A stretch of 36,920 nucleotides of DNA from NCBI GenBank assembly GCA_046725875.1, contig JBKOZJ010000193.1:1-36920 (forward strand). The letters are read 5' to 3'. The DNA comes from Actinomycetota bacterium (lineage in GTDB: Bacteria; Actinomycetota; Actinomycetes; JAKEEW01). The translations under genes and the position numbers were made by a program. The number at the start of each line of letters is the position of its first letter. The first letter of the stretch is position 1. Of the stretch, positions 988 through 36,920 are shown piece after piece. Below the pieces are notes generated by a model. That model was not told the DNA's origin and did not search any database. It worked only from the letters and a program-made list of their open reading frames with translations.

Positions 988-1097
988 TGTCGACCCTCCC
1001 GGCGGATGCCTGGCACCAGGCAACTCTCTACGCTTGGTTCGTGCCTTCCGTCCCGACCGAGCCGACCTCGGCCGCATCAGCTCTAGCTGCCGACGCC

Positions 1098-2072
1098 ATG
1101 GTGCGGAACGAGACAGTCGCCATCAGCCCAGCACCCGGCCGAGCGGCCGCTGCCACGGGCGCCGTCGCCCCGGCATCGGAAGTCCGCGCCGCGTCGGCCC
1201 GGACGCGACGGGTGTTCCTGGCCGGGATCATCGCCCAGATCGGGATCGTGATCACCGGGGGGCTGGTCCGGCTCACGGCGTCCGGGCTCGGCTGCCCCGA
1301 GTGGCCGCAGTGTTCCTCGGATTCGCTCGTGCCACGCGCGGAGACCGGCTATCACCAATACGTCGAGTTCGGCAATCGCATGCTCACCGGGGTCGTCGCC
1401 GTCGTGGCGCTCGCCTGCGTCGTCGCGGCCTGGCGGCACCGGCCGCGCCGCCGCTCATTGGTCGCTCTCGCGTCGGTGCTGCTCGGCGGTGTGGCGACGC
1501 AGGCCGTGCTCGGCGGAATTACGGTCCTGACGGAGCTGCATCCGGCGACCGTGGCGGCACACTTCCTGGTCTCGATGACGCTGGTCGCGTTCGCCGTCGC
1601 GTTGTACGAGCGTTCCGGAGAAGGTGACGCCGCACCGATCTCGCTGGTCCGTAATGAGGCAAAGATGCTCGGTTATGGCTTGCTGGCCACCGTTTCCACG
1701 GTGCTCGTACTCGGCACGGTGGTGACCGGAAGCGGCCCGCACTCGGGCGACGCGGAGGACACCGCTCGGTTCGGCTTCGATCCGCGCACCGTCGCGTGGC
1801 TACACGCCGACCTGGTGTGGCTGTTCATGGGCCTCGTCGTCGCGATGGTCGTGCTGCTACGCGCGACCGACGCTCCGCCCCTGGCGAGGCATCGAGCACT
1901 TGTCGTTCTGGCGATCGCACTTGCCCAAGGCGCAATCGGTTACTTCCAATATTGGACCGACCTGCCGGTCGCCGCCGTTGCCCTCCACATGCTCGGCGCT
2001 TCGCTCCTCATGGCCGCCGTCATCCGCCTGATCTACGCGCTGCGCACCCGGCCCTTGGCGGCGACCGGCTAG
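1098..2072 (+). CDS. ctaA: Heme A synthase (COX15/CtaA family)
   Basis: GGLVRLTASGLGCPEWPQC, EFGNR, AHF, GSGPHSGD, LH motifs, about 8 TM; start uncertain (1041 or 1098). Confidence 0.92.
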   Translation: MVRNETVAISPAPGRAAAATGAVAPASEVRAASARTRRVFLAGIIAQIGIVITGGLVRLTASGLGCPEWPQCSSDSLVPRAETGYHQYVEFGNRMLTGVVAVVALACVVAAWRHRPRRRSLVALASVLLGGVATQAVLGGITVLTELHPATVAAHFLVSMTLVAFAVALYERSGEGDAAPISLVRNEAKMLGYGLLATVSTVLVLGTVVTGSGPHSGDAEDTARFGFDPRTVAWLHADLVWLFMGLVVAMVVLLRATDAPPLARHRALVVLAIALAQGAIGYFQYWTDLPVAAVALHMLGASLLMAAVIRLIYALRTRPLAATG

Positions 2073-2602
2073 CCAGTCGCCGACGGCAGGGTGCCCGTGA
2101 TGTGGACCGGGTCGCCGGGCCGGACGCCGGCATCGGTGAAGGTGCCCCCCGGTGCCTCGACAGCGAGGTCGAACGGCTCGGGCGAGGGGTAGCGCCGGCA
2201 CTTCCATGGATCGACCGAGCCGCATGGTTCCATCTCGGCGACACCGACGACACCACCGTCGGCGGCCCAGACGATCGAGAGCGGTACCTTGGTCCGGTAC
2301 ATCCAGAAGGCGCCCTCCTCCGCCTTCGGGAACACGAAGATCATTCCGGTGCGGCTCGGCACCTCCTCCCGGTCCATCAAGCCGAGTTGACGTTCCTCTG
2401 CGGTGGCGGCGACCTCGACCTCCAGCGGGCCAGCCTTGCCAACGGTGACCGAGACGGTCGGGCGAGCACCGCCGCTGCCCGTGGGCGGGGCGGTCAATGG
2501 CGCGGCGCTCGGCCGGTCGCTGCCGCTCCCGCCGGAGACCCCGCACGCCGCAAGAGCAAGCAGCGCGACGGCCGTCGCTATGGCGGCCCGCAGGGTACGC
2601 AC
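2069..2602 (-). CDS. DUF192-family lipoprotein
   Basis: Lipobox LAAC; EVAAT..ER..GLM.R, GMIFVF, FWM..T..PL, AVE.PGG motifs. Confidence 0.85.
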   Translation of the reverse strand: MRTLRAAIATAVALLALAACGVSGGSGSDRPSAAPLTAPPTGSGGARPTVSVTVGKAGPLEVEVAATAEERQLGLMDREEVPSRTGMIFVFPKAEEGAFWMYRTKVPLSIVWAADGGVVGVAEMEPCGSVDPWKCRRYPSPEPFDLAVEAPGGTFTDAGVRPGDPVHITGTLPSATG

Positions 2603-2650
2603 TTTTGCATCATGGCCTATGTGGCCCGACCTTCCGCGGGGCTTCGGCGA

Positions 2651-2729
2651 ATGAAAGGCACTTTGCTGCGAATAGCCGGGAGATGAACGGCACCCTCACT
2701 CGAACCTATCGACCGAAGGTGCCGTTCAT
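2651..2729 (+). repeat. REP-like tripartite palindromic element, copy A
   Basis: Three GAA-N7-TTC-like units at 32 and 30 nt spacing; 47-bp hairpin 2683-2729 with 12-bp perfect arms; homologous to 19211-19289 and 20453-20531. Confidence 0.8.
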
Positions 2730-2745
2730 GCGAAACAGGGGGGCG

Positions 2746-3756
2746 TTAGCGGAGGACGGCGTCGATCGCGACGGTCACGAAGAGGAGGGCGAGGTAGCTG
2801 TTCGACCAGTGGAACAACCGCATCGGCCGGAGCGAAACACCTGCCGCCCCCGCCCGCGCCCGCCCGTACAGACGATGCGCCTCGACCAGGAAGACCGACC
2901 CGAGCGCCGACGCGACTACGACATAGACCGTGCCCGTCCCGGCAATCGGCCACAGCGCCAGGGAACAAGCGACCATCACCCAGCTGTAGAACACGATCTG
3001 CCGCGTGACTGAGCGCTCGGTCGCAACGACCGGCAGCATCGGCACCTTTGCCACCGCGTAGTCGTCCCGGTAGCGCAGCGCGAGCGCCCAGAAGTGCGGA
3101 GGCGTCCAGAAAAATACGACCAGGAAGAGCACCACCGGCGCCCACGCCAGCGACCCGGTGATCGCCGTCCAGCCGATAAGCGTCGGAAAGCACCCGGCGG
3201 CCCCGCCCCACACGATGTTCTGCGAGGTGCGCCGCTTCAGCACGATTGAGTAGCCGACCACATAGAAAACGTTCGCGGCGAGTGCGAGCCACGCGGACAA
3301 CCAGTTGACCGCGAAGCCGAGCCACACCGTCGCCGCGGCCCCGAGGCTGACGCCGAACACCAGCGCCGCACGCGGGCTGACCACGTGCGCTGGCAGCGGG
3401 CGGCGGCGGGTGCGGCGCATCGCCTCGTCGATATCCCGGTCGATCACGCAGTTGAGGGTGTTGGCGCTGCCGGCCGCCAGGGTTCCGCCGACTAGGGTCG
3501 CGAAGACCGGAGGCAGCGGCGGGACTCCCCCGGCCGCCAGGAACATCACCGGCACCGTCGTAACCAGCAGCAGCTCGATGATCCGTGGCTTGGTCAGCGC
3601 GACATAGGCCCGGACGAGCGAACCAAGGGTTCGACGGCTACTCGAGTCACCGGGGCCGGGCGGGCGGCGCGCCGCCGGCAGATCCATTTCCGCCGGCGCG
3701 CCATCCGGCCGCGCAACAACCGGTCGCGACCGACGCGAGGTCGACAGAACGGACAC
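2746..3756 (-). CDS. ctaB: Heme O synthase (protoheme IX farnesyltransferase)
   Basis: [43 protein letters not shown] motifs; divergent from tkt. Confidence 0.95.
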
Positions 3757-3882: not shown

Positions 3883-5976
3883 GTGACTGCCGAGACAACC
3901 CTGAACTGGACAGACGTCGATCGGCGGGCCGTCGACACGGTCCGGACCCTCGCCATGGACGCGGTAGAGAAGGCCGGCTCGGGTCACCCCGGCACGGCGA
4001 TGAGCCTTGCTCCAGCGGCTTATCTGCTATTCCAGCGCCTCCTCCGGCATGACCCGACCGACGCCAGCTGGCTGGGGCGCGACCGGTTCGTCCTGTCCGC
4101 CGGGCATACGAGCCTGACGCTGTACATCCAGCTCTACTTCTCGGGCTACGGACTGCGGCTGGACGACCTGAAGGCGCTGCGGCAGTGGGGCAGCCTGACG
4201 CCCGGCCATCCGGAGTACGGGCACACGCTCGGCGTCGAGACCACGACCGGGCCGCTCGGGCAGGGTTTCGGCAACGCGGTCGGCATGGCGATGGCAGCCC
4301 GGCGCATACGCGGTCTGTTCGATCCGGATGCCGAGCCAGGGGCGAGCCCGTTCGACCACACCATCTGGACCTTTGCAAGCGACGGCGACATCGAGGAAGG
4401 CGTCAGCTCGGAGTCGGCCTCGCTCGCCGGCCACCAGCGGCTGTCCAACCTCGTCGTCCTCTATGACGACAACCACATCTCGATCGACGGCAATACGAAC
4501 GTCGCGCTGTCCGAAGACGTGCTCGCCCGGTTCGCCGGCTACGGCTGGCACACCCAGCGGGTCGATGACGCCGAGGACGTCCATGCCCTGTTCGACGCGT
4601 TCATCACGGCGCGCGATGTCACCGACCGACCGGCCATCATCGCGGTTCGGTCGGTCATTGCCTGGCCGGCGCCGCACGCGCAGAACACGGGCAAGGCGCA
4701 TGGTGCCGCTCTCGGCGCCGCGGAGGTCGCGGCGACCAAGCGGGTCCTGGGCCTTGACCCGGACACGACCTTCGCAGTGCCTGACGACGTGCTCGATCAC
4801 GTACGGAAGGTCGCGCAGCGCGGCCGGGCGCTCCACGCCGAGTGGGACAAGACGTATACCCGGTGGCGGGAGGCGAACCCAGAGCGCGCGGCGGATCTCG
4901 ACCGCATCCTCGCCCGCAAGGTGCCCGAAGGATGGGCCGCGAAGCTGCCGGAGTTCGAGGCCGGCACAGCGGTCGCCACCCGCAAAGCGTCCGGAAAGGT
5001 GCTGACCGCGATCGCCCCGGTGCTGCCCGAACTCTTCGGTGGATCCGCCGACCTGCACGAGTCGAACAACACATACATCGAGGGTGAGTCGTCCTTCCTC
5101 CGGTCGGAGGCCGGAGCGGACAACTCCAGCCCGTACGGAAGGAACATCCACTTCGGCGTCCGCGAGCATGCGATGGGCGCGACGATGAACGGGATGGCGC
5201 TCTACAAGCTGCGCCCCTACGGGGGCACCTTTCTGATCTTCAGCGACTACATGCGCCCGGCAGTGCGGCTCGCCGCGCTGATGAAGTTGCCGACCATCTA
5301 TGTCTGGACGCACGATTCGATCGGGCTCGGCGAAGACGGCCCGACCCATCAGCCGATCGAGCAGCTGTGGGCGCTGCGCGCGATCCCCGGGCTCGACGTG
5401 GTCCGGCCGGCCGACGCCAACGAGACGGCGGTCGCCTGGCGGACCGTCCTCGAGCACACCGACCGACCCGCCGGCATCTGCCTGACCAGGCAGAACCTGC
5501 CGACCTTCGACCGGTCGCCCGGGACTGGGTTCGCCTCCGCCGAATGCATGGCTCGCGGCGGATATGTACTGGTCGAGGCGAGCACGGGCCAGCCGTCGGC
5601 GATCCTCATCGCCACCGGGAGCGAGGTCTCGATCGCGGTCGAGGCGCGGGAAAGGCTGGAAGCCGAGGGGCTGCCGACCCGAGTGGTCTCGATGCCCTGC
5701 GTGGAGTGGTTCGAGGCCCAGGAGCATGCATACCGGCAGTCGGTGTTGCCACCCGATGTGCGGGTACGGGTCTCGGTCGAGGCGGGCGTCGCCCAGGGTT
5801 GGGCGAAGTACGTCGGCGACGCCGGCGAGAGCCTCAGCCTCGAGCACTACGGTGCGTCGGCACCCTACGCGGTGCTTTATGAGCAGTTCGGCCTGACGCC
5901 GGACCGGGTCGTCGCGGCGGTACGGTCCAGCCTCTCGAAGATCGGTGCGACGAAGGGGTCGACGACCGGGAACTGA
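3883..5976 (+). CDS. tkt: Transketolase
   Basis: [24 protein letters not shown] ThDP motif, [16 protein letters not shown]; start set at GTG 3883. Confidence 0.97.
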
Positions 5977-25670: not shown

Positions 25671-26201
25671 CTATGCGAGCAGGATCTCGCCGCGCGTCAC
25701 GGTGATCATCCTCTCGGGCAGCGGCGTTGGCGCAGGCCCGCCTTCCACGGAGCCGTCCGTGATGCTGTAACGGCTGCCGTGGCACGCGCAGCGGATGAGC
25801 CCTTCATCAACGCTCGAGACAAGACACGCCTGGTGAGTGCAGATCGCGCTGAAGCACTTGAAGTCACCCGTCCTGGGCTGGGTGACGACGACCTTCTCGG
25901 CATTGAAGATGCGGCCGCCCCCGACCGGGATGTCTGCCGCTTTAGCTAGGGGCTCACCACCGGTGGACGGTGAAGTCTCCGACGAAGATGGGGACGCCGG
26001 AGGTGTTGTCGCGTTCCGGGAGCCGTTCGTCGCCGCCGCGTGGCCGGCTGAGTCGTCACCACCGCATGCCGCGAGCACCCCGCCGCTTGCCACCACACCG
26101 GCGGCGGCGAGCCCCCGCAGTATCTGGCGCCGGGACGGCGGCGCTTCGTCTGTCCCCGTTGGGAGCCGTGAGCCGAGATGAGCCTTGATCGCTTCAGGCA
26201 T
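25671..26201 (-). CDS. Tat-exported Rieske [2Fe-2S] lipoprotein
   Basis: SRRQIL Tat motif, LAAC lipobox, CTHQAC and CACHGSRY Rieske boxes, GPA.PL. Confidence 0.9.
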
Positions 26202-26407
26202 TCACAGTCGCTTCCTATCACCAACTACGTGACCATCTCTGCCGAACAGCACGGAGCTTCTGCGGCCACCGTTCACCCGCCGGGCCAAGTCCGAGCTCAT
26301 TCACAGCCTCATGAGTCCGGGACTCCGCTAACGGAGTGCCCAAAGCTGACAGCGGCCACCAGGCATGACCTGGTTACGCCCATCGGACTTAGCGGGAAAA
26401 CGGCTGG

Positions 26408-27118
26408 TCAGTCGCGGCCTTCCGGGCCCTCCTGACGGGCTTCCGCGCGCGGTCGCTGGGTCTCGCCGGACCACGCCGGCCACAGGCGCCGGGCCACGCT
26501 GGCCTCGAGTCGACCGCCCAGATGCATCGACCGCCACACGCCGCGGTAACCGGGTAGAACGCCCGATGCCACCAGCATGTGGCCAAGGATGAGCCCGGTG
26601 ACCGGGTACGTCGTCCACTTGTGAACCCGGGCGAGCAAAACAAAGGTGGGGCCGCCGTGAACGAGGGCGAGCCCTGCTCCGGTTCCCAGGAGCAGGGCCA
26701 GACCAAAGATGACGGTGACGTTGAGTATGCGTTGGCCTGGGTCGAATCGACCCTGATGCCAGCCGAACCGGCCGGTAAAAACAGCGGCCGGCCAGCGGGT
26801 GAACCAACCAAGCTCCGATCGGCGCAAACGAAGTGATTCGGCGACGAACGACGGGATGGATCTAGCTGCGACCAGCACCCAGACAAATGCCAACCCGGTG
26901 ATGATCCAGCCAACCAGCTTGTGCAGGGAGATGTCCGACATCCCGGCGAGCCTGGCAATCGGGCTGGCATGGCCCTCCTGGCCAGCTAGCAGCCACCAGC
27001 CGGTGGCGAGCAGGATCAGGGCGCCGAGATAGGTCCCCGCGTGAAACCACCGCGCCGGGCGCCGATACCTCTCGACCACGCCTACGCCGGCCGTTCGCCG
27101 CCGGCGATCAGTAACCAT
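26408..27118 (-). CDS. Di-heme cytochrome b (FdnI/HyaC-like, 4 TM)
   Basis: Four TM His (RWFH, LHK, VHK, GHM), GRFDPGQR motif, C-terminal A...WP.W; ATG 27118 overlaps the upstream stop. Confidence 0.82.
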   Translation of the reverse strand: MVTDRRRRTAGVGVVERYRRPARWFHAGTYLGALILLATGWWLLAGQEGHASPIARLAGMSDISLHKLVGWIITGLAFVWVLVAARSIPSFVAESLRLRRSELGWFTRWPAAVFTGRFGWHQGRFDPGQRILNVTVIFGLALLLGTGAGLALVHGGPTFVLLARVHKWTTYPVTGLILGHMLVASGVLPGYRGVWRSMHLGGRLEASVARRLWPAWSGETQRPRAEARQEGPEGRD

Positions 27119-27557
27119 TCCCACTGTAGCCACCGGAGCTTGACTCGCTCGGCGTTCCGCCAGAGCCCCCGGTTACGGTTACGGTGATCTCGGCCTCGGC
27201 GCCCGCCGGCGAATGGTCCGCGTGCTGCAAGGTGACCCCGATCGTGTGCTTCCCCGGCGAGAGGTCCTTGACCTCGGTCTGAGTGGACGTCACCACCTCG
27301 TAGTTGTTGGTTTTGCCGTCTACGAAGAGGTGCACGTGGTCCTTTCCCGAGTCGGTCGGGCCGATCTGTTCGCTGGAGGTGAATGTCAGGGTGAACGGCA
27401 CCCTGACGGTGGCAGTGTCAGACGGCGCGGTGACTTGCAGCGTCGGCCCGCCGCCGCCGGAAGACGAGCCGGAGGAGTCGTCCGAGCCGCATGCCGTAGC
27501 AGCGAGGGCAAGCAGCGCGGCGACTCCGATCATGAATGCGAATGTGCGGGGTCGCAT
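27108..27557 (-). CDS. His-rich secreted lipoprotein with small beta-sandwich domain (DUF4399-like)
   Basis: Lipobox ATAC, Ser/Gly linker, HVHLFVDG and PGKHTI...QHADHS motifs; GAGGAG RBS. Confidence 0.65.
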   Translation of the reverse strand: MRPRTFAFMIGVAALLALAATACGSDDSSGSSSGGGGPTLQVTAPSDTATVRVPFTLTFTSSEQIGPTDSGKDHVHLFVDGKTNNYEVVTSTQTEVKDLSPGKHTIGVTLQHADHSPAGAEAEITVTVTGGSGGTPSESSSGGYSGNGY

Positions 27558-27657
27558 GGGTTGCTCCTCGAGGAAAGCTATGTCCTGTTGTTTTCCACGT
27601 CGACAGGGGTGGTGCCGTTCACCTTCAGCCGCATCGACCCCCTTCCGTGTGCCGTGA

Positions 27658-28245
27658 TCAACTGAACTGTGTGTCGCCCGCGCTCACGCCGATCCGGGAG
27701 AGCCCGTCCCTGAGGTGCTCGGCGGTCAACTCGCCGAACCAGCGGTCGACGATCCGTCCGGACGCGTCGACCACAAGCGTGTCCGGAATCCCCTGCAGCC
27801 CAATCCGGGACGCGAACGTCCCCGCCTCGTCGAATACCTGGGGATAGGTCACCTTCGAAGCGGCGAGAAAGCGAAGCGCGGCGCTGCGGCTGTCGCGCGA
27901 GTCGACTCCGAGGAAGAGGACGCGATCGCCAACCGCGCGGTTTGCCGCCTCGAGCAGCCGGGCCTCCCGACGGCATGGTGCACACCATGACGCCCAAAAG
28001 TTGATGACTTCGGGACGACCGTGCACCGCGGCCGCGGAGACCTCGTTCTGCGGGCTGGCCAGGCAGGGCAACATCGTCGTCTTGACTCCGATGATCGGCC
28101 TTCCCGCCCCGGTCGGGCAGGCACCAAGAACCGGGGCATTCCGGGTCGCGATGGACTGATCCGAGGAACCACCACACGCGGCCGCGACGAGAACCAGCAT
28201 GGCAGCTGCGCACCATCGTCGAGACCAAGGAGTGATCCGCGTCAT
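27658..28245 (-). CDS. TlpA/ResA-like thiol-disulfide oxidoreductase lipoprotein
   Basis: Lipobox AAAC, NFWASWCAPCRRE, FLGVD, YP..FD, GIP.T. Confidence 0.9.
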   Translation of the reverse strand: MTRITPWSRRWCAAAMLVLVAAACGGSSDQSIATRNAPVLGACPTGAGRPIIGVKTTMLPCLASPQNEVSAAAVHGRPEVINFWASWCAPCRREARLLEAANRAVGDRVLFLGVDSRDSRSAALRFLAASKVTYPQVFDEAGTFASRIGLQGIPDTLVVDASGRIVDRWFGELTAEHLRDGLSRIGVSAGDTQFS

Positions 28246-28300: not shown

Positions 28301-28987
28301 TTGCACAAGAAGATTGCAGTGGCTGGTAACCGCGTTCTTGCCATCGACGACGAGCCGCGCGTGGTCGATTTCGTCTCGCGTGCTCTCCGCGGCGAGGGCA
28401 TCGACGTCGACACGGCCACGACCGGCGAGGACGGGTTTCGACTCGCGGTCTCGCGCTCCTACGACGTCATCGTTCTCGACCTGTTGATGCCGGGAACGGA
28501 CGGCGTCTCGGTCCTGCACCGCATCCTGCGTCGCAAGCCCGACCAGTCGGTCATCGTCCTCTCTTGCCTTACCGACACGACCTCCAAGGTCCGTTGCCTG
28601 GAGATAGGCGCCGACGACTACCTGGGCAAACCGTTCGCCCTGGACGAGCTCCTTGCCCGGGTGAAGGCGCGAATGCGGGACAAAGCGCCCGCCAACCCGC
28701 AGACCCTGGTGGCGCGCGGGCTGGTGCTGGACCCGGTGCGGCAGGAAGCAAACGGCGGATCCGGACCCATCCCGCTGACCAGGCGCGAATCGATGCTGTT
28801 GGCGGAGCTCATGCGTAACGCCGGCCAGGCGGTTTCCAAGGAGCGCCTGCTCTCGACCGTGTGGGGATACAGTTTCGGCCCAGGATCGAACGTCGTCGAT
28901 GTGTACGTGCGACGGCTGCGCGCGAAGCTCGGATTGGATGCCGTCGTGACCGTACGCGGCACGGGCTACGGGGTGGACATTGATTAG
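28301..28987 (+). CDS. OmpR/PhoB-family response regulator
   Basis: IDDE, VLDLLMP phospho-Asp, GADDYLGKPF, winged helix NVVDVYV.RLR.KL, TVRG.GY; start may be GTG 28319. Confidence 0.93.
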   Translation: MHKKIAVAGNRVLAIDDEPRVVDFVSRALRGEGIDVDTATTGEDGFRLAVSRSYDVIVLDLLMPGTDGVSVLHRILRRKPDQSVIVLSCLTDTTSKVRCLEIGADDYLGKPFALDELLARVKARMRDKAPANPQTLVARGLVLDPVRQEANGGSGPIPLTRRESMLLAELMRNAGQAVSKERLLSTVWGYSFGPGSNVVDVYVRRLRAKLGLDAVVTVRGTGYGVDID

Positions 28988-30062
28988 GCGGTGGCCTGCA
29001 CTCGCGCGGCGGTACTGGGTCGAGCTGGTCTGGTGTCTCTTCGTGCTGGCCAATACCGGCGCGATCCTGATCTTTCGCGACTGGGCCACGGTGCCGTTCC
29101 ACTTCATCTGGATCGGGCTGTCACTGCTCTACGGATGGCGCGTCTGGGGTCTGCGCGCCACCATCTGGGCGCTCGTCACGGTGATAGCGCTCACGGCAGC
29201 CGCGTTGACCATCGACGTGGCGGTGGACGACCAGGCGCCCGACGAGCTGACCGAGATCCCGCTGATGGCCACCGTGTTCGTGGTCATGGTTTGGTACGTC
29301 CGGCGCAACATCGCCGCCAAGGAGGAGATCCGCCGGGTCTCGGAGCACAACCTCGCGCTGCTGCAGCAGGAGCGCCACTTCATCGAAGACGCCTCGCACG
29401 TGCTGCGTACGCCGCTCACGGTCGCCCTGGGACATGCAGAGCTTATTTCGCGAACGACGGGCGACCCGATGACCGCCCATGACTCGAAGGTCATCGTCGA
29501 CGAGCTGAAGCGGCTGAAGAGCGTCTCCGACCGGCTTCTAGAGCTTGCCGCGACAGAGCAGCCGGACTTCGTGCACCCGGTCGAGACATCGATCCGCGAC
29601 CTGATCACGGACGCGCACTCGCGCTGGTCGGCAACCAACCCGGCAGTGGAGTTCGGCCGAGTCGTCAACGCGTCCCTGCCCCTCGACCCGGCCCGGATCC
29701 GGGACGCGCTGGACGAACTGATCGGCAACGCCGTCGGACATTCACCGCCGGGAACCCCGGTCAAGCTGTCGGCGCGGCGGCAGGACGGCACCGTGGTGGT
29801 GGCGGTGGCAGACCGCGGGCCGGGGATCACGCCGAGCGAGCAGGCTCGGATCTTCGACCGGTTCTCCCGCGTCGACGGGGCCGATCGACGCAACGGGTTC
29901 GGCCTCGGGCTGGCCATCGTGAAGGCCATCGCGGAGGCGCACGGTGGCTCCGTGGACGTGCGCAGCGAGCCGGGCCGCGGCACCACCTTCGAGCTGCGGC
30001 TGCCGATGGCCGGCCAGGAGCATGAGAGCCGGCAGCTCCAGCCGGCGCCGTCGCGCCGGTAG
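28980..30062 (+). CDS. Sensor histidine kinase with 4-TM intramembrane sensor
   Basis: Four short TM segments, H-box ASHVLRTPL, N-box LIGNAV, DRGPGI, GFGLGL, HGG. Confidence 0.92.
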   Translation: MIRRWPALARRYWVELVWCLFVLANTGAILIFRDWATVPFHFIWIGLSLLYGWRVWGLRATIWALVTVIALTAAALTIDVAVDDQAPDELTEIPLMATVFVVMVWYVRRNIAAKEEIRRVSEHNLALLQQERHFIEDASHVLRTPLTVALGHAELISRTTGDPMTAHDSKVIVDELKRLKSVSDRLLELAATEQPDFVHPVETSIRDLITDAHSRWSATNPAVEFGRVVNASLPLDPARIRDALDELIGNAVGHSPPGTPVKLSARRQDGTVVVAVADRGPGITPSEQARIFDRFSRVDGADRRNGFGLGLAIVKAIAEAHGGSVDVRSEPGRGTTFELRLPMAGQEHESRQLQPAPSRR

Positions 30063-30192: not shown

Positions 30193-32253
30193 TCACCCGT
30201 CGTCCGGATGAGGCATATCGACCGGTTGGTCGAAGGCGTGGTAGCGATCGTCCATGAAATGAGTGGGTGCCCACATCTGAGACCTCAGCACTCGGCCGGT
30301 GGCCCGATCGATCCACAACGTGAACCAGACGGTCTCCGGGTTGTCGCCATGCCCGCCGAAGAACGACACGCGGGTCACTGGGACACCGCCAAGCGACCGA
30401 TGCTCTACGACATGGGCATTGACGAACGGCTCGAACGGGGTCCACGCGAAATACGGCACTGGAACGAGCGCGCCCTCCGACCGTAGTTTCCACGGCGCCC
30501 CAGGACTACTGCGCACGTAGACCTTGGACCCGAGCCACAGTGTGTCCTGCGGACCGTCGCCGAACCACGTCCGCAGCCACATGGCGTGCGGCCGGGCGTA
30601 AACATAAGCACTTCTGATGCCGGAGAGCACCTCGTTCACGCGGTAGCTGTGCACGCGATCCATCTGAGCGGTCGCCCGTTCCAGGAGCGCCGTACCATCC
30701 GGGGCGGGCAGCCTCGGAAGGACAAACGCAGCCGTCCCGCCGCCGTCTCCCGCCACCGCCACCCCTACGCGCTCGCCGCCGCGCAGGTCGACAGGGACGG
30801 TCCAGCAGGACGGCCCGCATGCCACAAACGGATACGAGCGACCGCGGACCGACAGCCGGACATCCCCGAGGCCAGCCGGTGACGGGGCGATGTAGGCATA
30901 CACCTGGTTCGAACCTGGGCGACCAGGACGCACGGTGAGGCCCACCATCGTGTCGCCCGCCCGCCCGCCGATCGAGTAGTCCCCCGGCCGCGGGAACGGA
31001 GACATCTCGGCGGCTCCGGCCGTCGCCTCGCGGGACTCCTCGGCCTCACCGGCCTCCCTAGGCACCACCGGGAAGGCAGCGAGCGCCGCGGCCGCGGCCA
31101 CGACGACCAGCGCGACGACCGCCTCGCCTCGCACCATCACCCGCAGCCGCCGCCAGGCGAGAAAAGACAGCGGGATCATGGCGGCGACGGCGAGGCCTTT
31201 CGCGAGGAGGGTTAGGCCGTATGCAGTACTGAGCACCTCGCCGGGCCCGCCCAGCAGCTGGGCGGCCTGCACTACTCCCAGACCCACCGAGATCCCGAAC
31301 GCCCATGGCGCGACCGTCGAGAACCGGGGCAGCAACGCCCGGCCCACGGTCGGCCAGCCGCCGGTCACGCGCACGAACGCCAGGGCCATGATGCCGCCGG
31401 CCCATACTCCGGCGGCGGCGAGATGAGCGGCGTTGACGGCCATCCCGGCCCACGCCGGTTCGACGTTGGCGGCGTGGCCGGCCACGGCGACCGCGCCCAC
31501 AACACCGGTAAGGAGGACCGGTGACAGGCGCCCCCGCACAAGGGCAATGATCAGGATGCACAGTTCGAGTCCGATCCGAGCGACCCGGGCCCAGCCGGTG
31601 ACACCGATCGTCAGGTAGTCCCGTAGTCCAGACATGGACAAGCCGGACGTGGCCACCGCCGCCTCCGCGAGGACCACGGTCGTGCCGCCGATCAGAAGCG
31701 CGGTCGCGACGGGAACGGCGGGGGGACGCATCGGGATCTCGGGTCCGAGCCGGCGCAGTACCACGAGTCCGCAAGCCAGCAGCAGCACGGCGTACTCGAT
31801 CGCGCGGGCAGCTGCGGTAAGCCCGTCGCCACGCGAGGGTTGGGGTGAGCCGCCCGTGGCCGCAGCGCCGGCCGGCACCCCGACGCCGAACCGGAATGCG
31901 CCGGTGATCGTATGTCCGTCGACATGGCTCACCGTCGTCCACTCGACCCGATAGACGCCGGGCGCGTTGGTCGACAGCGGCACCCGGATCGTCGCGCCGG
32001 AGACCGAGTCCTGGAAGCGGCGACCGGTCGGGTCGACGACGGTGGCGTGCGAGAGCCGGGCCACAAGGGGCTCGTCGAAGGTCAAGACGACGACCCCGGG
32101 CGTCGCTCCCAGCGTCGCACCCGCGGCCGGGCTCGAGGAGACGAGGATCGCGTGCGCCTCGGCCGGGGTCGGGATGATCAGGAGCCACCCCACGCCGATA
32201 ATGCAGCACGCTAGACGCAGCGACCACCGTGTGCCGCGCCGAGCCGATCGCAT
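30193..32253 (-). CDS. CopC-CopD fusion copper uptake/resistance protein with extra C-terminal extracellular domains
   Basis: Signal peptide AEA|HA.LVSSSP, DGH CopC motif, CopD GHA and HL.AA.VW.GG, YG..L..K, then about 270 soluble residues. Confidence 0.88.
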   Translation of the reverse strand: MRSARRGTRWSLRLACCIIGVGWLLIIPTPAEAHAILVSSSPAAGATLGATPGVVVLTFDEPLVARLSHATVVDPTGRRFQDSVSGATIRVPLSTNAPGVYRVEWTTVSHVDGHTITGAFRFGVGVPAGAAATGGSPQPSRGDGLTAAARAIEYAVLLLACGLVVLRRLGPEIPMRPPAVPVATALLIGGTTVVLAEAAVATSGLSMSGLRDYLTIGVTGWARVARIGLELCILIIALVRGRLSPVLLTGVVGAVAVAGHAANVEPAWAGMAVNAAHLAAAGVWAGGIMALAFVRVTGGWPTVGRALLPRFSTVAPWAFGISVGLGVVQAAQLLGGPGEVLSTAYGLTLLAKGLAVAAMIPLSFLAWRRLRVMVRGEAVVALVVVAAAAALAAFPVVPREAGEAEESREATAGAAEMSPFPRPGDYSIGGRAGDTMVGLTVRPGRPGSNQVYAYIAPSPAGLGDVRLSVRGRSYPFVACGPSCWTVPVDLRGGERVGVAVAGDGGGTAAFVLPRLPAPDGTALLERATAQMDRVHSYRVNEVLSGIRSAYVYARPHAMWLRTWFGDGPQDTLWLGSKVYVRSSPGAPWKLRSEGALVPVPYFAWTPFEPFVNAHVVEHRSLGGVPVTRVSFFGGHGDNPETVWFTLWIDRATGRVLRSQMWAPTHFMDDRYHAFDQPVDMPHPDDG

Positions 32254-32254
32254 C

Positions 32255-32479
32255 TCAGCGCATCGCGATGGCCAGAATCGCCAGCCCGGCCAGGACCACC
32301 AGGACCGTGATGAACACGGTCGCGTGGTATTGCGTCCGGCTCGGCTCGGGCAATCCGGCGGGGTTGCAGTCTTTGCAGACCGACCGGCCCCATGCCGTCG
32401 GCTTGCCGCAACGGACGCACTGGTCGAATGAGCGCATCGTGACTGCCGCCCTTCCCGGGGCCGCCTGCCGTTCAGGCAT
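32255..32479 (-). CDS. Small membrane-anchored CxxC-x10-CxxC metal-binding protein (hypothetical)
   Basis: CVRC..CKDC followed by NP.GL..P..TQYH and a C-terminal TM helix; ATG 32479 overlaps the ctaF-like stop, own stop abuts copCD start; alternative start 32437. Confidence 0.7.
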   Translation of the reverse strand: MPERQAAPGRAAVTMRSFDQCVRCGKPTAWGRSVCKDCNPAGLPEPSRTQYHATVFITVLVVLAGLAILAIAMR

Positions 32480-32921
32480 GATGCGGTCCACCTGCGAGGT
32501 CCGGGCTCTCCTCATGCGGCTCGGCCTCATCATGATGCCGCCATTGCTGGCGGACGTCGAGGATCCAGCCGATGCCCGCGGCGATGAAGAGCGCACCGCC
32601 GCCGACGAGCGCCCAAAGCGGCCCAACGGCCCCGACGACCAGGCCGATCGTGGCGAGGGCGATCACCAGCGGCCAGATGGTCGGACCGACATGGGGTTCG
32701 GCGTCCGGGCCACCTAGTGGCACCGCGGCGGCCTCCGCGGCGAGGGCGACCCGGGCCCGATGCACGGCAGAGACCAGGTAGGCGCCGACGAGAAGCGCAC
32801 CCCCAGCCACGATGAGCATCAGCGTAGTGCCCTCCCACTCGTAGGTAACCGCGCCGTAGATCACGCCGGTGACGAGGAGGAATCCGCCGAAGCCGAAGAT
32901 GATCCTCGAGAACAAGTTCAT
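32472..32921 (-). CDS. ctaF: Cytochrome c oxidase subunit IV (actinobacterial CtaF-like)
   Basis: 4 TM, Y....EWEGT and P.IWP motifs; GGAGG RBS before ATG 32921; operon position. Confidence 0.75.
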   Translation of the reverse strand: MNLFSRIIFGFGGFLLVTGVIYGAVTYEWEGTTLMLIVAGGALLVGAYLVSAVHRARVALAAEAAAVPLGGPDAEPHVGPTIWPLVIALATIGLVVGAVGPLWALVGGGALFIAAGIGWILDVRQQWRHHDEAEPHEESPDLAGGPHHA

Positions 32922-32972
32922 GGGCAGCCACCTCCGCTCGGCCAATGCCGGGAGCGACCCAAGGCACCCATA

Positions 32973-33581
32973 TCAGCCGGCCGGCGCCAAGTAGAGGATC
33001 AGGTAGATCGCGACGCCGAGGGCGACGACGAAATACCAATAGATACCCGCGGCCTGCACCGGATCTCGTTGCAGCGCCAGCTCACCGGCCCAGGCGCGGA
33101 CGAGGACCAGGGACAGCAGCACTACTCCGCCCACCACATGGGCCAGCTCCAGTCCCGTGATCGTGTAGAACAGGGATTCGTAGATCCCCTCCCCCACGCC
33201 GAATCCCAGCCCCTGGTAGCCGGCCGCCAGGAGGGCAACAAAGGCCACCGCACAGGCCACCGTCACACCGAGCCAGGGCATCATCCCGCGCGGGTAGTCG
33301 GGTCGACGGATCTTGCGCAGCACCCGAGACATGGAGACACCGCTGAGGAGCAGCACGACGGCCGCGATTGTCGGCTGCGCGAGCGCAGGTCCGGTGGCGC
33401 CGGCCGGCGGCCAGACATCCGCCTCCGTGTACGCCGTCATGTAGATGCCGAAGAACGCCGCGAAGAACACCCCTTCGGAGGCCACGAAGATGGTCATTGC
33501 GGTTACCGGACTGCCCGCATTTCGTACGGCCCGCCGGTCCAGCAGCTCGGGCGATGGCGCGGCGCCAGACTGGGTGCTCAT
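32973..33581 (-). CDS. ctaE: Heme-copper oxidase subunit III (divergent)
   Basis: F.ASE..FF..FF, WPP, LL.S, FY..TGL..AHV..G, YW.FV; ATGA overlap with subunit I. Confidence 0.85.
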   Translation of the reverse strand: MSTQSGAAPSPELLDRRAVRNAGSPVTAMTIFVASEGVFFAAFFGIYMTAYTEADVWPPAGATGPALAQPTIAAVVLLLSGVSMSRVLRKIRRPDYPRGMMPWLGVTVACAVAFVALLAAGYQGLGFGVGEGIYESLFYTITGLELAHVVGGVVLLSLVLVRAWAGELALQRDPVQAAGIYWYFVVALGVAIYLILYLAPAG

Positions 33582-35212
33582 GCCGTCACCCCTGACTCGG
33601 CAGTGGTGCTCAGCCGCAGGTCACGGACCGGTCGTTCGGACCTGATCTCGGGGAGTCTTTCAAAGTTGTAGGGAGGCGGTGGCGAAGTCGTAGCCCACTC
33701 CAGCGTGTTGCCCTGCCATGGATCGGCCGGTGCGGTGCGCGGCCTTCGCAGGGTTATGACGAGATTGGCCAGCGCGACCAGCATCCCCAAAGCGATGATG
33801 AAGGCGCCGATGGTCGCAACCACGTTGAGTGTCGTCCATCCCGCATCGCTGGGATAGAACGCGACCCGGCGCGGCATGCCCTGCAGGCCCAGGTAGTGCA
33901 TTGGGAAGAACGTCAAGTTGAACCCGATGAACTGGAGCCAGAAGTGCGCGTAACCCAGCCGCCGGTCGAGGTAGCGGCCGGTTATCTTCGGGAACCAGTA
34001 GTACATCGCGGCCATGATCGCGAAGAGGCTGCCGCCGAACAGCACGTAGTGAATGTGCGCGACGACGAAATACGTGTCGTGGATCGCGTAGTCCATCGCC
34101 GGGGAAGCCATCCACACGCCGTCGATCCCGCCGATCAGGAAGAGCGCGACGAACCCGAGCGCGAAGAGCATCGGCGGCTCGAACCGGAGCTTCCCCCGCC
34201 ACATGGTGAACAGCCAGTTCAGGAACAGCACGCCGGTCGGCACGGAGATTACCTCCGTGGTCACGGAGAAGAACGAATCATCGACGAGGCCGGTGGTGTA
34301 CATGTGATGGCCCCACACGGTGAACGACAGGGCTACCACGAGCATCAGGGCGAGAATGACTCCGCGATAGCCGAACAGCGGCTTGCCGCTGAATACCGGG
34401 ATGATCTCGGAGACGATTCCCCAGGCGCCCATGATGAGCATGTAGACCTCGGGGTGCCCGAAGAACCAGAACGTGTTCAGGTAGTTGAACACGCTGCCGC
34501 CGTGGGCTGGATCGAGGAAGACGGTTCCGAGGTGGCGGTCGGCGAACAGGATTATGAGCACCGCCGTCAGGGCCGGGACCGCCAGCACCACCAGGATCGA
34601 GGTGCTTAGCGTCGCCCAGGTGAAGATTGGTACCCGCGTCATGCTCATTCCCGGCGCCCGCATCCGGAGCACCGTCACGATGAAGTTGATCGCGCCGAGC
34701 AGTGAGCTGGTTCCCACCACCAGCAGGCCCAGGATCCAAAGATCCTGCCCGGTTCCCTCCTGCAGCGCGAGCGGCACGTAATTCGTCCAGCCGGCCGCGG
34801 CCGGGCCGTCCTTGGTGAGATATCCGGCGAGGATCGTGAGTCCACCAACGGGCAGCAGCCAGAACGACAACGCGTTTATCCGGGGGAAGGCCATGTCGAG
34901 CGCGCCGATCTGCAGCGGCACGAAGTAGTTGCCGAAGCCGGACAGCAGCGGGAGTATCACGAGGAAGATCATGATCGTCCCGTGCATGGTGAAGGTCTCG
35001 TTGTACGCCTGCGGCGAGAGAACCGTGTTGTCCGGTTGCGCCAGCTGCGTCCGGATCACCATCGCCAGAGCGCCGGCGATGGCGAAGAACGCGAACGAAT
35101 TGAAGAGGTACAGTATTCCGATCTTCTTGTGATCGGTGGTCGTCAACCAGGCGAGTGCCCGCGCGGGGCGCGGCTGCGGTGCCCGTGCCGGCGCCCGAGC
35201 GATTACCGTCAT
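33578..35212 (-). CDS. ctaD: Heme-copper oxidase subunit I, A1-type but lacking the K-pathway lysine
   Basis: TTDHK.IG, H77, D106 (DMAFPRIN), FGHPEVY, WGHHM, HDTYFVVAHIHY, GMPRR; PTGVL in place of PTGVK. Confidence 0.93.
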   Translation of the reverse strand: MTVIARAPARAPQPRPARALAWLTTTDHKKIGILYLFNSFAFFAIAGALAMVIRTQLAQPDNTVLSPQAYNETFTMHGTIMIFLVILPLLSGFGNYFVPLQIGALDMAFPRINALSFWLLPVGGLTILAGYLTKDGPAAAGWTNYVPLALQEGTGQDLWILGLLVVGTSSLLGAINFIVTVLRMRAPGMSMTRVPIFTWATLSTSILVVLAVPALTAVLIILFADRHLGTVFLDPAHGGSVFNYLNTFWFFGHPEVYMLIMGAWGIVSEIIPVFSGKPLFGYRGVILALMLVVALSFTVWGHHMYTTGLVDDSFFSVTTEVISVPTGVLFLNWLFTMWRGKLRFEPPMLFALGFVALFLIGGIDGVWMASPAMDYAIHDTYFVVAHIHYVLFGGSLFAIMAAMYYWFPKITGRYLDRRLGYAHFWLQFIGFNLTFFPMHYLGLQGMPRRVAFYPSDAGWTTLNVVATIGAFIIALGMLVALANLVITLRRPRTAPADPWQGNTLEWATTSPPPPYNFERLPEIRSERPVRDLRLSTTAESGVTA

Positions 35213-35251: not shown

Positions 35252-36349
35252 TTATTTCGCCGGCCCGATGATCAGGGTTCCGCTCATCGCCGGACCGTGG
35301 ATGTCGCATTGGAAGTAGTACCTTCCGGGCTTCAGCGCCGGGACGGTGAAGGTCTTGGTTACTGGTCCGGTGAAGTCCGGCGTGATGTAGAACTGGTGCT
35401 TGGTTTTCGGGCTGTCCCAGATCGCAAAGTTGTGGGCTATCTGGTTGTCCTCATTCTTGATCGTGATTTGGAACGGCTTTCCGGCCAGGACTGCGAGGCA
35501 GTTCTTGTCCCAAGTGATTTGGTGCGCGACCAGCTCTAGGGTCGACCCGGTCGGTTTGCACTCGCCCCCGTGGGCCGCTGCCTTCTTCTGCTGCTCGACC
35601 CAGGAAAGGAACTCCGCCTGGGGCACGACCTTGACTACGAAGGTCATCTGAGCGTGCCATAGCCCGCAGAACTGCGCACACTGGCCGCGATAGGTCCCGA
35701 GCTTTGACGGTGTGACCGTGAAGACGTTCGGGTGCCCTGGTACCGCGTTCTTCATATACAACAGGTCAGGCACGTAGAACTCGTGGATCACATCCGTGGA
35801 TCGAAGCTCGATCCGGGTCGGCGTGTCGACCGGCAACTCCATCATGAGTGGCTGCTTGAGGGTCTTCCCAGTGACCGTGAACTCCTCGTTGACGTAGTTC
35901 GCCGACCACTCCCATTGGAATGCGTTGATCACAAGCCGTTCACCAGGGTTCGGGTCGTTGCGATCGACCCGGGCTACTGCCACCTCCCCGACCGCAAGCA
36001 GCACGATGATGACCGCGAGCGGCCCGGCGAAGAATGCCGCCAGTGCAGTGTTGTTGCCGGCGTGCTGCACCGGCTCGGACTCGTCACCGCGCCGCCTGCG
36101 GAACCGGACCACTGAGATGAGCAGCATGCCCTCGACGAACAGAAACACCGGGAGCGCGAGCCAGAGGACGATGTAGAAGAGTCCGTGCACGGTCTCGGAC
36201 TTCGACGAGATCCCCGGCTTCACGCAGGCGGATGTCAACAGCAGCGACCCGAGGAGGCCTACCATCCGCAGCCGCCGGCTGAAGCCGGTGGCTGCGGAGG
36301 TCGTTGTCCGACGGGTCCGCTCGCGGTAACGCGCGGGCCAACGCATCAT
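35252..36349 (-). CDS. ctaC: Heme-copper oxidase subunit II (CuA) fused to a C-terminal type-1 blue copper domain
   Basis: Lipobox-like LTSAC, 2 TM, QWEW, DVIH, CAQFCGLWHAQM; then AHNF...YYFQCDIHGPAM.G cupredoxin. Confidence 0.9.
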   Translation of the reverse strand: MMRWPARYRERTRRTTTSAATGFSRRLRMVGLLGSLLLTSACVKPGISSKSETVHGLFYIVLWLALPVFLFVEGMLLISVVRFRRRRGDESEPVQHAGNNTALAAFFAGPLAVIIVLLAVGEVAVARVDRNDPNPGERLVINAFQWEWSANYVNEEFTVTGKTLKQPLMMELPVDTPTRIELRSTDVIHEFYVPDLLYMKNAVPGHPNVFTVTPSKLGTYRGQCAQFCGLWHAQMTFVVKVVPQAEFLSWVEQQKKAAAHGGECKPTGSTLELVAHQITWDKNCLAVLAGKPFQITIKNEDNQIAHNFAIWDSPKTKHQFYITPDFTGPVTKTFTVPALKPGRYYFQCDIHGPAMSGTLIIGPAK

Positions 36350-36350
36350 C

Positions 36351-36920
36351 TCAAGAGACCGTGAATCCCTTGACCATGCCGATGGAGGCGTGCACGGGGC
36401 CGGTGCCGCCGCCGGCCTTACCGTCCTCCCAGCAACTGATCACGTAATTGCCGGGCGGCAAGTTGAACGACCCTACGCTGGTTCCGCCGGTGTCGACGTC
36501 GGCGATCTCCCCGAACCCTAGGTAGTCCCCTTCGCCGTCGGGGCCTTTCGCCTTGGCGGAGGCCACCACGTCGTCCGCGGTCTTACCGGCGGGGACGCCG
36601 AGCAGGACCAGCTCGTGGGTGATGTCGAAGGTTTCCTTGTTGGAGAAAACGATGTTGAACGGCTGGTTCGCCGGCACCGTGTCCGGCATGCCCTGATAGG
36701 TGAAGTTGGCCACCGACACCTGGTAGGTCTTCGGGGCGGCAGCACCTTGCGCAGTGGCCGACGAGGATGCGGTGAACGCCTTGACCATGCCGATGGAGGC
36801 GTGCACGGGGCCGGTGCCGCCGCCGGCCTTGCCGTCCTCCCAGCAACTGATCACGTAATTGCCGGCCGGCAGGCTGAAGGTATGCACGCCGGTACCGCCG
36901 GTGTCGACGTCGGCGATCTC
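36351..36920 (-). CDS. Tandem-domain blue copper protein (azurin/auracyanin/sulfocyanin-like), 5' end outside window
   Basis: Frame is open to the window edge; HELV...L.PGNYVISC-x13-H-x4-M; the Cys/His/Met segment occurs twice. Confidence 0.85.
   Translation of the reverse strand, partial: EIADVDTGGTGVHTFSLPAGNYVISCWEDGKAGGGTGPVHASIGMVKAFTASSSATAQGAAAPKTYQVSVANFTYQGMPDTVPANQPFNIVFSNKETFDITHELVLLGVPAGKTADDVVASAKAKGPDGEGDYLGFGEIADVDTGGTSVGSFNLPPGNYVISCWEDGKAGGGTGPVHASIGMVKGFTVS
36368..36920. repeat. Intragenic direct repeat, 411-bp period
   Basis: 36368-36454 matches 36779-36865 with a single mismatch, and similarity continues to the window end. Confidence 0.92.

Follow-up and report, generated by a model that had tools for sequence, protein, structure and literature searches.

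The window analyzed here is a stretch of 36,920 nucleotides from an Actinomycetota bacterium (GenBank assembly GCA_046725875.1, contig JBKOZJ010000193.1), which carries on its reverse strand the genes for subunits II and I of a heme-copper oxidase. Residue conservation among homologs indicates that the two genes probably encode a working A1-type heme-copper oxygen reductase of a soil Actinomycetota clade, in which the entrance of the K-channel is replaced in both subunits. Leucines occupy the positions of the K-channel lysine (Lys) of subunit I, a residue treated as essential in textbook A-type oxidases, and of the entry glutamate (Glu) of subunit II. Judged by the residues lost and kept, the canonical K-channel appears to be filled in along its lower half, whereas its upper half and the D-channel look untouched, as in a working enzyme.

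The entry glutamate is missing from the start of TM2

The subunit II open reading frame (ORF), of the CoxB/CtaC type, comprises a COX2 periplasmic domain (residues 169-242, 55.6 bits) and a C-terminal Cupredoxin_1 domain (PF13473, residues 279-361, 61.8 bits), as assigned by Pfam, in addition to a COX2_TM match that falls below threshold (16.5 bits against a cut-off of 22.8). The structure predicted by AlphaFold2 on the basis of 50 sequences, with a mean predicted local distance difference test score of 86.7, has a signal-like helix (residues 21-39), transmembrane helix 1 (TM1, residues 49-82), a loop (residues 83-99) and TM2 (residues 100-129), followed by two β-sandwich domains. As TM2 begins at residue 100 of this model, Leu103 would sit in the first turn of the helix. 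Structural similarity search using Foldseek revealed that the model resembles subunit II of Paracoccus, R. sphaeroides, Thermus caa3 and M. smegmatis, with E-values of ~1e-16 to 1e-17.

The entry Glu of A-type subunit II is the residue that we take to be E62 in the bovine and E101 in the R. sphaeroides enzyme; the title of PDB 6ci0, “E101A (II) mutation”, agrees with the latter numbering. The preliminary description of the window, made from the DNA letters, had read the start of TM2 as devoid of both this Glu and the Trp-Thr pair that follows it, and alignment to solved structures bears this out. In a phmmer search, the segment HGNDRLEVVWTLIP of Thermus thermophilus caa3 subunit II (2yev_B) aligns column by column with AGNNTALAAFFAGP of the window, which places the Glu over Leu103 and the Trp-Thr over Phe106-Phe107. 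Alignment with Paracoccus subunit II (1ar1_B) shifts the Glu by one residue, opposite Ala104; whichever alignment is used, neither Asp nor Glu is found from Pro93 to Gly121. Besides the Glu and the Trp-Thr, the His and Asn of the HGN motif are lost from subunit II, and the motif HGN..E..WT has thus become x.G..[LIVY]..FF.

The losses of Lys and Glu go together

Genome contigs were scanned with subunit I, and the best 80 of 595 confirmed loci were taken as the locus sample. All ORFs of each locus were translated, and subunits I and II were located by phmmer and then aligned. The Lys-less set has 19 members, window included (L001-L007, L009, L012, L016-L023 and L025); as subunit II of L003 is cut by the contig end, 18 of the 19 are readable at TM2. 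The Lys-bearing loci with an upstream subunit II number 52, with TM2 readable in 48. Three loci were excluded from the group counts, namely L028, in which Gln replaces the Lys and subunit II lies elsewhere, and the distant L026 and L027 (39-42% identity); six more had no usable upstream subunit II.

The preliminary description had proposed a paired alignment of subunits I and II as the test of whether the two losses co-occur, and they do. None of the 18 readable Lys-less loci retains the Glu alongside Leu329, where residue 103 is Leu in 13, Ile in two, Val in two and Tyr in one, whereas the Glu is present in 47/48 and the Trp-Thr in 47-48/48 of the Lys-bearing loci. All 18 Lys-less loci have the Phe-Phe pair. 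The lone Glu-less locus among the Lys-bearing ones, L058, is a frameshifted ORF. In this locus (5047-5904, a metagenome-assembled genome (MAG) of Gaiellaceae), the reading frame of subunit II changes in the loop/TM2 region, either by assembly error or because the gene is a pseudogene.

A wider set of close homologs gives the same pattern. None of the 120 best-matching subunit II clusters (57-90% identity, each carrying PF13473 and PF00116) has the Glu; the column holds Leu, Tyr, Ile, Met and other residues, and nearly all of the clusters have the Phe-Phe. In the 50-sequence alignment of subunit II, Phe106, Phe107 and Pro110 are invariant. The 120 best-matching subunit I clusters include the protein of the window itself; their position 329 is Leu in 119 and Met in one. 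With the Glu lost in 120/120 homologs and in 18/18 paired loci, the loss is fixed beyond what chance would give. The ratios of nonsynonymous to synonymous substitution rates (dN/dS) between the genes of the window and those of five relatives are 0.14-0.21 for subunit I, 0.28-0.50 for subunit II and 0.29-0.52 for residues 50-130 of subunit II alone; these values are rough, because synonymous sites are near saturation (proportion of synonymous differences 0.45-0.61). The preliminary description had argued for evolved retirement of the K pathway and against a point lesion. Fixation throughout the clade excludes the lesion, and the conservation pattern supports an evolved, clade-wide and selected state; retirement, by contrast, is shown for the lower, entrance half of the channel only.

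Metal sites, D-channel and clade-specific residues

Subunit I matches Pfam COX1 from residue 30 on (521 bits) and aligns with M. smegmatis CtaD (6adq_F) at 594.8 bits, from query residue 18 and target residue 27. In this alignment VPTGIKFFNW of 6adq_F lies over VPTGVLFLNW of the window, which replaces the Lys by Leu329, and MTFLIA lies over TTEVIS, which introduces a new Glu320 in TM8. The NCBIfam model TIGR02891 scores just above its cut-off on subunit I (673.7 against 670.75). Scores are below cut-off for the actinobacterial models of CtaD (NF050116, 672.9 against 880), CtaC (NF050117, 151.2 against 250) and CtaE (NF050119, 67.4 against 190), as well as for the CoxB model on subunit II (139.3 against 147.7).

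All 19 Lys-less members keep the six His ligands (heme a, heme a3 and three for CuB) and the Tyr of HPEVY that mark the A family; Glu269 and the Mg-site His-Asp are likewise kept in 19/19. According to the classifier paper PMC3084760, the D-channel is defined by an entrance Asp with Asn residues and a Glu in TM6, and the A-type K-channel by Lys, Thr, Ser and Tyr of subunit I. The D-channel set of Asn95, Asp106, Asn113 and Glu255 is invariant in the Lys-less rows. In the K-channel, the Lys is Leu329 and the Glu of subunit II is Leu103, with Thr326, Ser268 and Tyr257 present in the window and Thr326, Ser/Thr268 and Tyr257 kept in 19/19. Asp106, Glu255, Tyr257, Thr326 and the new Glu320 are also found in 120/120 of the best subunit I clusters. 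Position 332, which lies a turn beneath the Lys, is Asn in 57/59 Lys-bearing rows but in only 6/19 Lys-less members and 70/120 clusters, a sign of relaxed constraint on the lower channel.

The clade has about a dozen specific positions in subunit I and ten in subunit II. Glu320 is fixed in 19/19, where Lys-bearing rows have Phe (33), Ala (19), Met (2) or Gly (2). In subunit II, Gly121-Glu122 is found in 18/18 readable Lys-less loci, where Lys-bearing loci read Ser and then Trp, Phe, Met or Thr. Further hydrophobic swaps lie in TM6 and TM7 of subunit I (Met258, Leu259, Gly262, Trp264, Gly284 and Val285). In addition, 40/59 Lys-bearing relatives read HPAVY, which is A2-like and lacks the TM6 Glu, whereas every Lys-less member reads HPEVY; the clade without the K-channel gate is therefore the clade with the D-channel Glu.

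The CuA site expected of an A-family subunit II is complete in 19/19 Lys-less loci (His189, Cys224, Cys228, His232 and Met235), and so are the type-1 copper ligands of the fused domain. This domain is modeled as β-sandwich strands (residues 270-362); by its ligands and predicted fold it meets the description of a type-1 (blue) copper cupredoxin and is a putative copper binder. In a Pfam sample of 39 of 77 subunit II ORFs, the fusion is present in 17/17 Lys-less and 19/22 Lys-bearing sister subunits. As it is common to the Lys-bearing sister clade, it is not tied to the loss of Lys and Glu, and we ruled it out as the cause of the K-channel loss. The Glu between the CuA cysteines (CxExC) is a ligand of the Mg/Mn site. 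It is replaced by Gln226 (35672-35674, reverse strand) in the window and eight other Lys-less loci; the Glu is kept in the other 10 Lys-less loci and in all 52 Lys-bearing loci, so that the position varies inside the Lys-less clade.

One loss on the stem of the clade

Phylogenetic analysis using FastTree covered 214 subunit I rows, namely the loci and the 50%-identity representatives of at least 500 residues. The 19 Lys-less rows form a single clade (support 100), whose sister group (support 98) is a Lys-bearing clade of 51 rows, mostly Chloroflexota MAGs; more Lys-bearing rows lie outside both. A quick IQ-TREE analysis of 44 selected rows, in which 15 of the 19 Lys-less rows were combined with 19 Lys-bearing loci and 10 representatives, recovered the same Lys-less clade with a Shimodaira-Hasegawa-like approximate likelihood ratio test value of 100. 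Here the Lys-less clade, the sister clade and the pair P0122/P0143 form a three-way split without resolved order (support 97); both members of the pair bear the Lys, and their motifs resemble 6adq_F. Nested as it is among Lys-bearing branches, the Lys-less clade points to one derived loss on its stem, and the pairing of the two losses accordingly counts as one evolutionary event, not 18. All Lys-less loci are from Actinomycetota, among them Nocardioidaceae, Streptosporangiaceae, Jatrophihabitans and unclassified members.

The 50%-identity representatives of subunit I, in which the clade of the window is a single fragment (P0129), were too coarse for pairing and served to survey the Lys column. 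Lys is present in 93/150. Another 19/150 (P0130, P0139 and others), mostly of ~780-860 residues, have Gln at the Lys position in the motif G[VI]Q[VI]F; L028, from an Acidobacteriota MAG, shares this Gln and is part of another large Lys-less group.

Proton routes and alternative explanations

On the clade stem, hydrophobic residues replaced the K-channel entrance of both subunits and have since been maintained by selection. If the enzyme works as we propose, electrons would pass from the blue-copper domains to CuA, heme a and the heme a3-CuB site, at which O2 would be reduced, and substrate protons would no longer use the Glu/Lys gate. They might come from the intact D-channel via Glu255 (route a), or along a new path through Glu320 of subunit I, possibly with Glu122 of subunit II (route b); we weakly favor route (a), or a mixture of the two. 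Several points weigh against this proposal. The function ascribed to the clade derives from conservation; as a single event, the pairing alone cannot show that the two losses are functionally coupled; loss of the Lys nearly abolishes turnover in well-studied A-type oxidases, so the D-channel alone may not suffice; and a specialized or low-rate role is possible if the same genomes hold a canonical Lys-bearing oxidase too.

The channel may instead have been re-routed rather than retired, with Glu320 and Glu122 joining Thr326, Ser/Thr268 and Tyr257 in a new proton route, which we consider possible but on the whole doubtful. The fixation of Glu320 together with the retention of the three upper-channel residues leaves room for such a path, and Glu122 is as constant in the readable Lys-less loci as it is foreign to the Lys-bearing ones. 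Moreover, in 212 diverse subunit I rows the column of Glu320 holds Glu in 30/72 Lys-less but 0/140 Lys-bearing rows, at six or more separate places in the tree, including MAGs of Marsarchaeota, Thermoplasmata, Hydrothermarchaeota and Euryarchaeota. The independent contrasts are few, however: among eight, the Glu goes in the same direction in two to five and never in the opposite one, with a sign-test median p of 0.25. The other 42/72 Lys-less rows have no Glu in this column, and on a regular helix Glu320, nine residues from position 329, would point to roughly the opposite face. A more far-reaching version, to which we give rather little credence, is that the buried pair compensates for the loss of the gate by providing a different proton route at the interface of subunits I and II, the TM8 Glu having arisen several times in bacteria and archaea. 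If true, the pair would be a third, so far undescribed design of a substrate-proton channel in A-type oxidases.

A change of chemistry or coupling would make the K-channel unneeded, for example if the complex were a non-pumping sink for a high-potential periplasmic donor fed via blue-copper proteins, or a reductase of a substrate other than O2. The cupredoxin fused to subunit II and the multi-cupredoxin protein encoded upstream would suit such a role, the Mg-site Glu of the CuA loop is Gln in 9/19 Lys-less loci including the window, and the Lys-less A-family enzymes in the table of PMC8239418 include those of the rusticyanin (rus) operons of iron oxidizers. The fusion, however, is no explanation of the loss, being shared by 19/22 Lys-bearing sisters, and the invariant Tyr, CuB His, heme His and full D-channel with Glu255 are the signature of an O2-reducing, D-channel-using A1 enzyme. 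Nitric oxide (NO) reductase families lack the active-site Tyr in the account of PMC11214002, whereas it is retained here. Their cNOR/qNOR motifs are given in PMC3084760 as H-x-Arom-x-E and HH-x-Arom-Arom-x17-E, and Glu320 stands 17, not 21, residues past the second His; subunit I does not show the NO reductase features. A changed chemistry is improbable in our view.

The possibility that an acid of the GDESEP loop has taken over as a displaced entrance had been raised in the preliminary description, and it is modeled on E. coli bo3, in which a Glu of subunit II is reported to be differently placed. Asp89 of this loop is nearly invariant (17/18 readable Lys-less rows) and lies 11 residues ahead of TM2. 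It is equally conserved in the Lys-bearing relatives that have the Glu (43/48) and is therefore no clade-specific substitute; Glu90 and Glu92 vary inside the Lys-less clade, and any acid at the entrance would lack a partner, since Lys329 has been lost too. Such a displacement seems very unlikely. Less plausible still, to the point of being scarcely credible, is that the operon is a decaying or non-functional paralog in which the missing Lys and Glu are tolerated lesions. The scores below the actinobacterial aa3 and CoxB cut-offs of NCBIfam and the weak COX2_TM match would fit decay. Against it stand the fixation of these replacements and of every metal ligand across 19 loci and 120 + 120 clusters, the conservation of the replacing residues (Phe-Phe, Leu329, Glu320 and Glu122), dN/dS values below 1, intact ORFs and a conserved operon.

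Comparison with known oxidases

The canonical A1 aa3 oxidases of Paracoccus, R. sphaeroides and M. smegmatis/M. tuberculosis (CtaC-CtaD) share with the enzyme of the window all ligands, the D-channel, HPEVY and the fold of subunit II, with TM-scores of 0.67-0.71 when normalized by target length. They differ from it in that the window has Leu for both Lys and Glu, has lost HGN and WT, has gained Glu320 and Glu122, and carries the fused cupredoxin. The best solved relative of subunit II in sequence is 2yev_B of T. thermophilus caa3 (E = 3.7e-29). Both have an electron-carrier domain fused to the C-terminus, which is cytochrome c in caa3 but a cupredoxin in the window, and caa3 keeps HGN..LE..WT. 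B-family ba3 oxidases function without the Lys by means of Thr, Ser and Tyr of a K-analog channel; the D-channel is missing from them and a Glu is retained at the entrance in subunit II, whereas the enzyme of the window has a complete D-channel and no entrance Glu.

The closest comparison is the Lys-bearing sister clade, which consists mostly of Chloroflexota MAGs with a few Actinomycetota and is 56-61% identical to the window in subunit I. Like the window, it has the C-terminal cupredoxin on subunit II in most members, the gene order II-I-III and a TlpA-like gene nearby. Unlike the window, it has Lys, Glu, HGN and WT all present and neither Glu320 nor Glu122, and most of its members have Ala in HPxVY.

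Co-loss of the two residues is a published pattern. In their supplement, Degli Esposti and co-workers (2021; PMC8239418, Fig. S7 table and Table S1) list ~80 bacterial and 10 archaeal A-family enzymes with their residues at both positions, the Lys of subunit I and the Glu of subunit II (Paracoccus E78). Counting the bacterial A-family rows ourselves, we find the Glu in 44/45 that have the Lys and in 4/36 that lack it. The main text of that paper states that the K-channel was lost several times in family A. The Lys-less groups given there include the rus-operon oxidases of acidophilic iron oxidizers, Acidimicrobiia, some Chloroflexi, acidophilic Firmicutes, Oligoflexia, Elusimicrobia and several archaeal groups. 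Examples under the labels “modified”, “hybrid” or “KC” are the rus-operon aa3 of Acidithiobacillus, Acidiferrobacter and Acidihalobacter, together with Acidimicrobium, Acidithrix, Thermaerobacter and Halobacteriovorax. As described there, the enzymes with a modified K-channel resemble that of the window in having non-ionizable residues at the K354 and COX2 E78 positions and in keeping the Tyr, the Thr above the Lys and HPEVY of TM6, and several of them use blue-copper donors; the enzyme of the window would fall in this “modified” class. We tentatively place the four “KC” columns at Gly281, Val285, Ala288 and Ser296 by an ungapped count back from the His-His motif.

There are also differences between the window and the surveyed enzymes. 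The “2TM” subclades of Actinobacteria, Chloroflexi, Firmicutes and acidophiles in PMC8239418 carry, at the N-terminus of subunit I, one or two additional TM helices. Subunit I of the window, with 544 residues, has none of these, its alignment with the 12-helix M. smegmatis protein starts at residue 18, and the enzyme does not fit the actinobacterial subclades listed there. The PMC8239418 table has no row that describes a 12-helix A1 enzyme from Actinomycetota, and the domain architecture of subunit II, a TM8 Glu and a second subunit II Glu are not among its entries. A literature search retrieved no paper on the TM8 Glu, on the clade of the window or on a Lys-less subunit II with a cupredoxin fused to it; the Degli Esposti 2020 BBA survey may cover more.

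Since the general phenomenon has been published, our finding refines the existing picture and does not overturn it. Natural enzymes that lack both the Lys and the subunit II entrance imply that the protons of the reductive half-cycle can arrive otherwise. The Lys-less clade and its Lys-bearing relatives, with ~60% identity in subunit I and the same architecture, provide a near-isogenic natural comparison. The two clade-specific buried Glu residues, which are open to mutagenesis, are the part most worth follow-up. For annotation, the finding means that some soil Actinomycetota proteins called “cytochrome c oxidase subunit II” are of a cupredoxin-fed type with a modified K-channel.

Operon and genomic neighborhood

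Table 1. Features of the oxidase locus, with positions in the 36,920-nucleotide window.
Feature	Position	Strand	Evidence
Subunit II gene, 365 residues (signal/lipobox helix, TM1, TM2, CuA domain, fused cupredoxin)	35252..36349	-	ORF, Pfam, NCBIfam, AlphaFold2, Foldseek
First turns of TM2, together with the end of the preceding cytoplasmic loop from TM1, VQHAGNNTALAAFFAGPL	36015..36070	-	Frame 1 translation, phmmer, model
Codon for Leu103, where A-type subunit II has the K-channel entry Glu	36041..36043	-	Alignments
Phe106-Phe107 in place of Trp-Thr of the E..WT motif, invariant in the clade	36029..36034	-	Alignments
Glu122, clade-specific, periplasm-side part of TM2	35984..35986	-	Alignments, model
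CuA motif CAQFCGLWHAQM, with Cys, Cys, His and Met intact	35645..35680	-	Alignment
C-terminal cupredoxin domain, type-1 copper ligand pattern His306, Cys348, His351, Met355	35267..35515	-	Pfam, alignment
Subunit I gene, 544 residues, A1-type (GHPEVY), ~60% identical to the M. smegmatis CtaD class	33578..35212	-	ORF, Pfam, phmmer
Subunit I Leu329, position of the K-channel Lys	34226..34228	-	Alignments
Subunit I Glu320, new clade-invariant Glu in TM8	34253..34255	-	Alignments
Subunit III gene	32973..33581	-	Pfam, NCBIfam, locus comparison
Actinobacterial-type subunit IV gene	32472..32945	-	Pfam, locus comparison
Tandem cupredoxin-like repeat protein gene, upstream, 5' end outside the window	36351..36920	-	ORF, Pfam
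CopC-CopD fusion gene, conserved in the nearer Lys-less loci, downstream of the oxidase genes	30193..32253	-	Pfam, NCBIfam
Two-component pair (response regulator, histidine kinase), next to the operon in most of the Lys-less loci	28301..30062	+	Pfam, NCBIfam

Across the Lys-less loci, the gene order is multi-cupredoxin protein, II, I, III, IV and usually a small protein, with the two-component pair nearby (Table 1). The two-component pair is divergently placed, and the nearer relatives also have the CopC-CopD gene and a thioredoxin-like gene of the TlpA/ResA type.

In the cupredoxin-repeat ORF upstream of subunit II, the repeats have near-identical ends (...NYVISCWEDGKAGGGTGPVHASIGMVK.FT, twice). 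Its homologs in L001 and L004-L006 are stop-to-stop ORFs of 471-595 residues with weak Cupredoxin_1 matches, and three of these four long homologs also have weak matches to sulfocyanin (SoxE). At the other end of the operon, a small ORF (32255-32626, reverse strand) overlaps the end of the subunit IV ORF and has two Cys-x2-Cys motifs and a C-terminal hydrophobic helix, with no family match; same-strand homologs follow subunit IV in six Lys-less loci (L001, L004, L005, L007, L009 and L012). The CopC-CopD fusion has 686 residues, including a long C-terminal extension with no family match, and is kept in L001, L002 and L004-L006.

Just past the two-component genes lie genes for a Rieske protein, a cytochrome b561-like protein and a thioredoxin-like protein of the TlpA/ResA type (25671-28245, reverse strand). 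By analogy with archaeal SoxM, their products could act as quinol-oxidizing and copper-site-maturation partners of a cupredoxin-fed oxidase; the Rieske and cytochrome b561-like genes (25671-27133) are candidates for encoding the reductant of the cupredoxins. The rest of the window is ordinary actinobacterial chromosome, with ctaA and ctaB, pentose-phosphate and glycolysis genes, whiA and uvrC. The genes by which heme A is synthesized, ctaA on the forward and ctaB on the reverse strand (1041-3756), are ~30 kb away from the oxidase operon, among genes of central metabolism.

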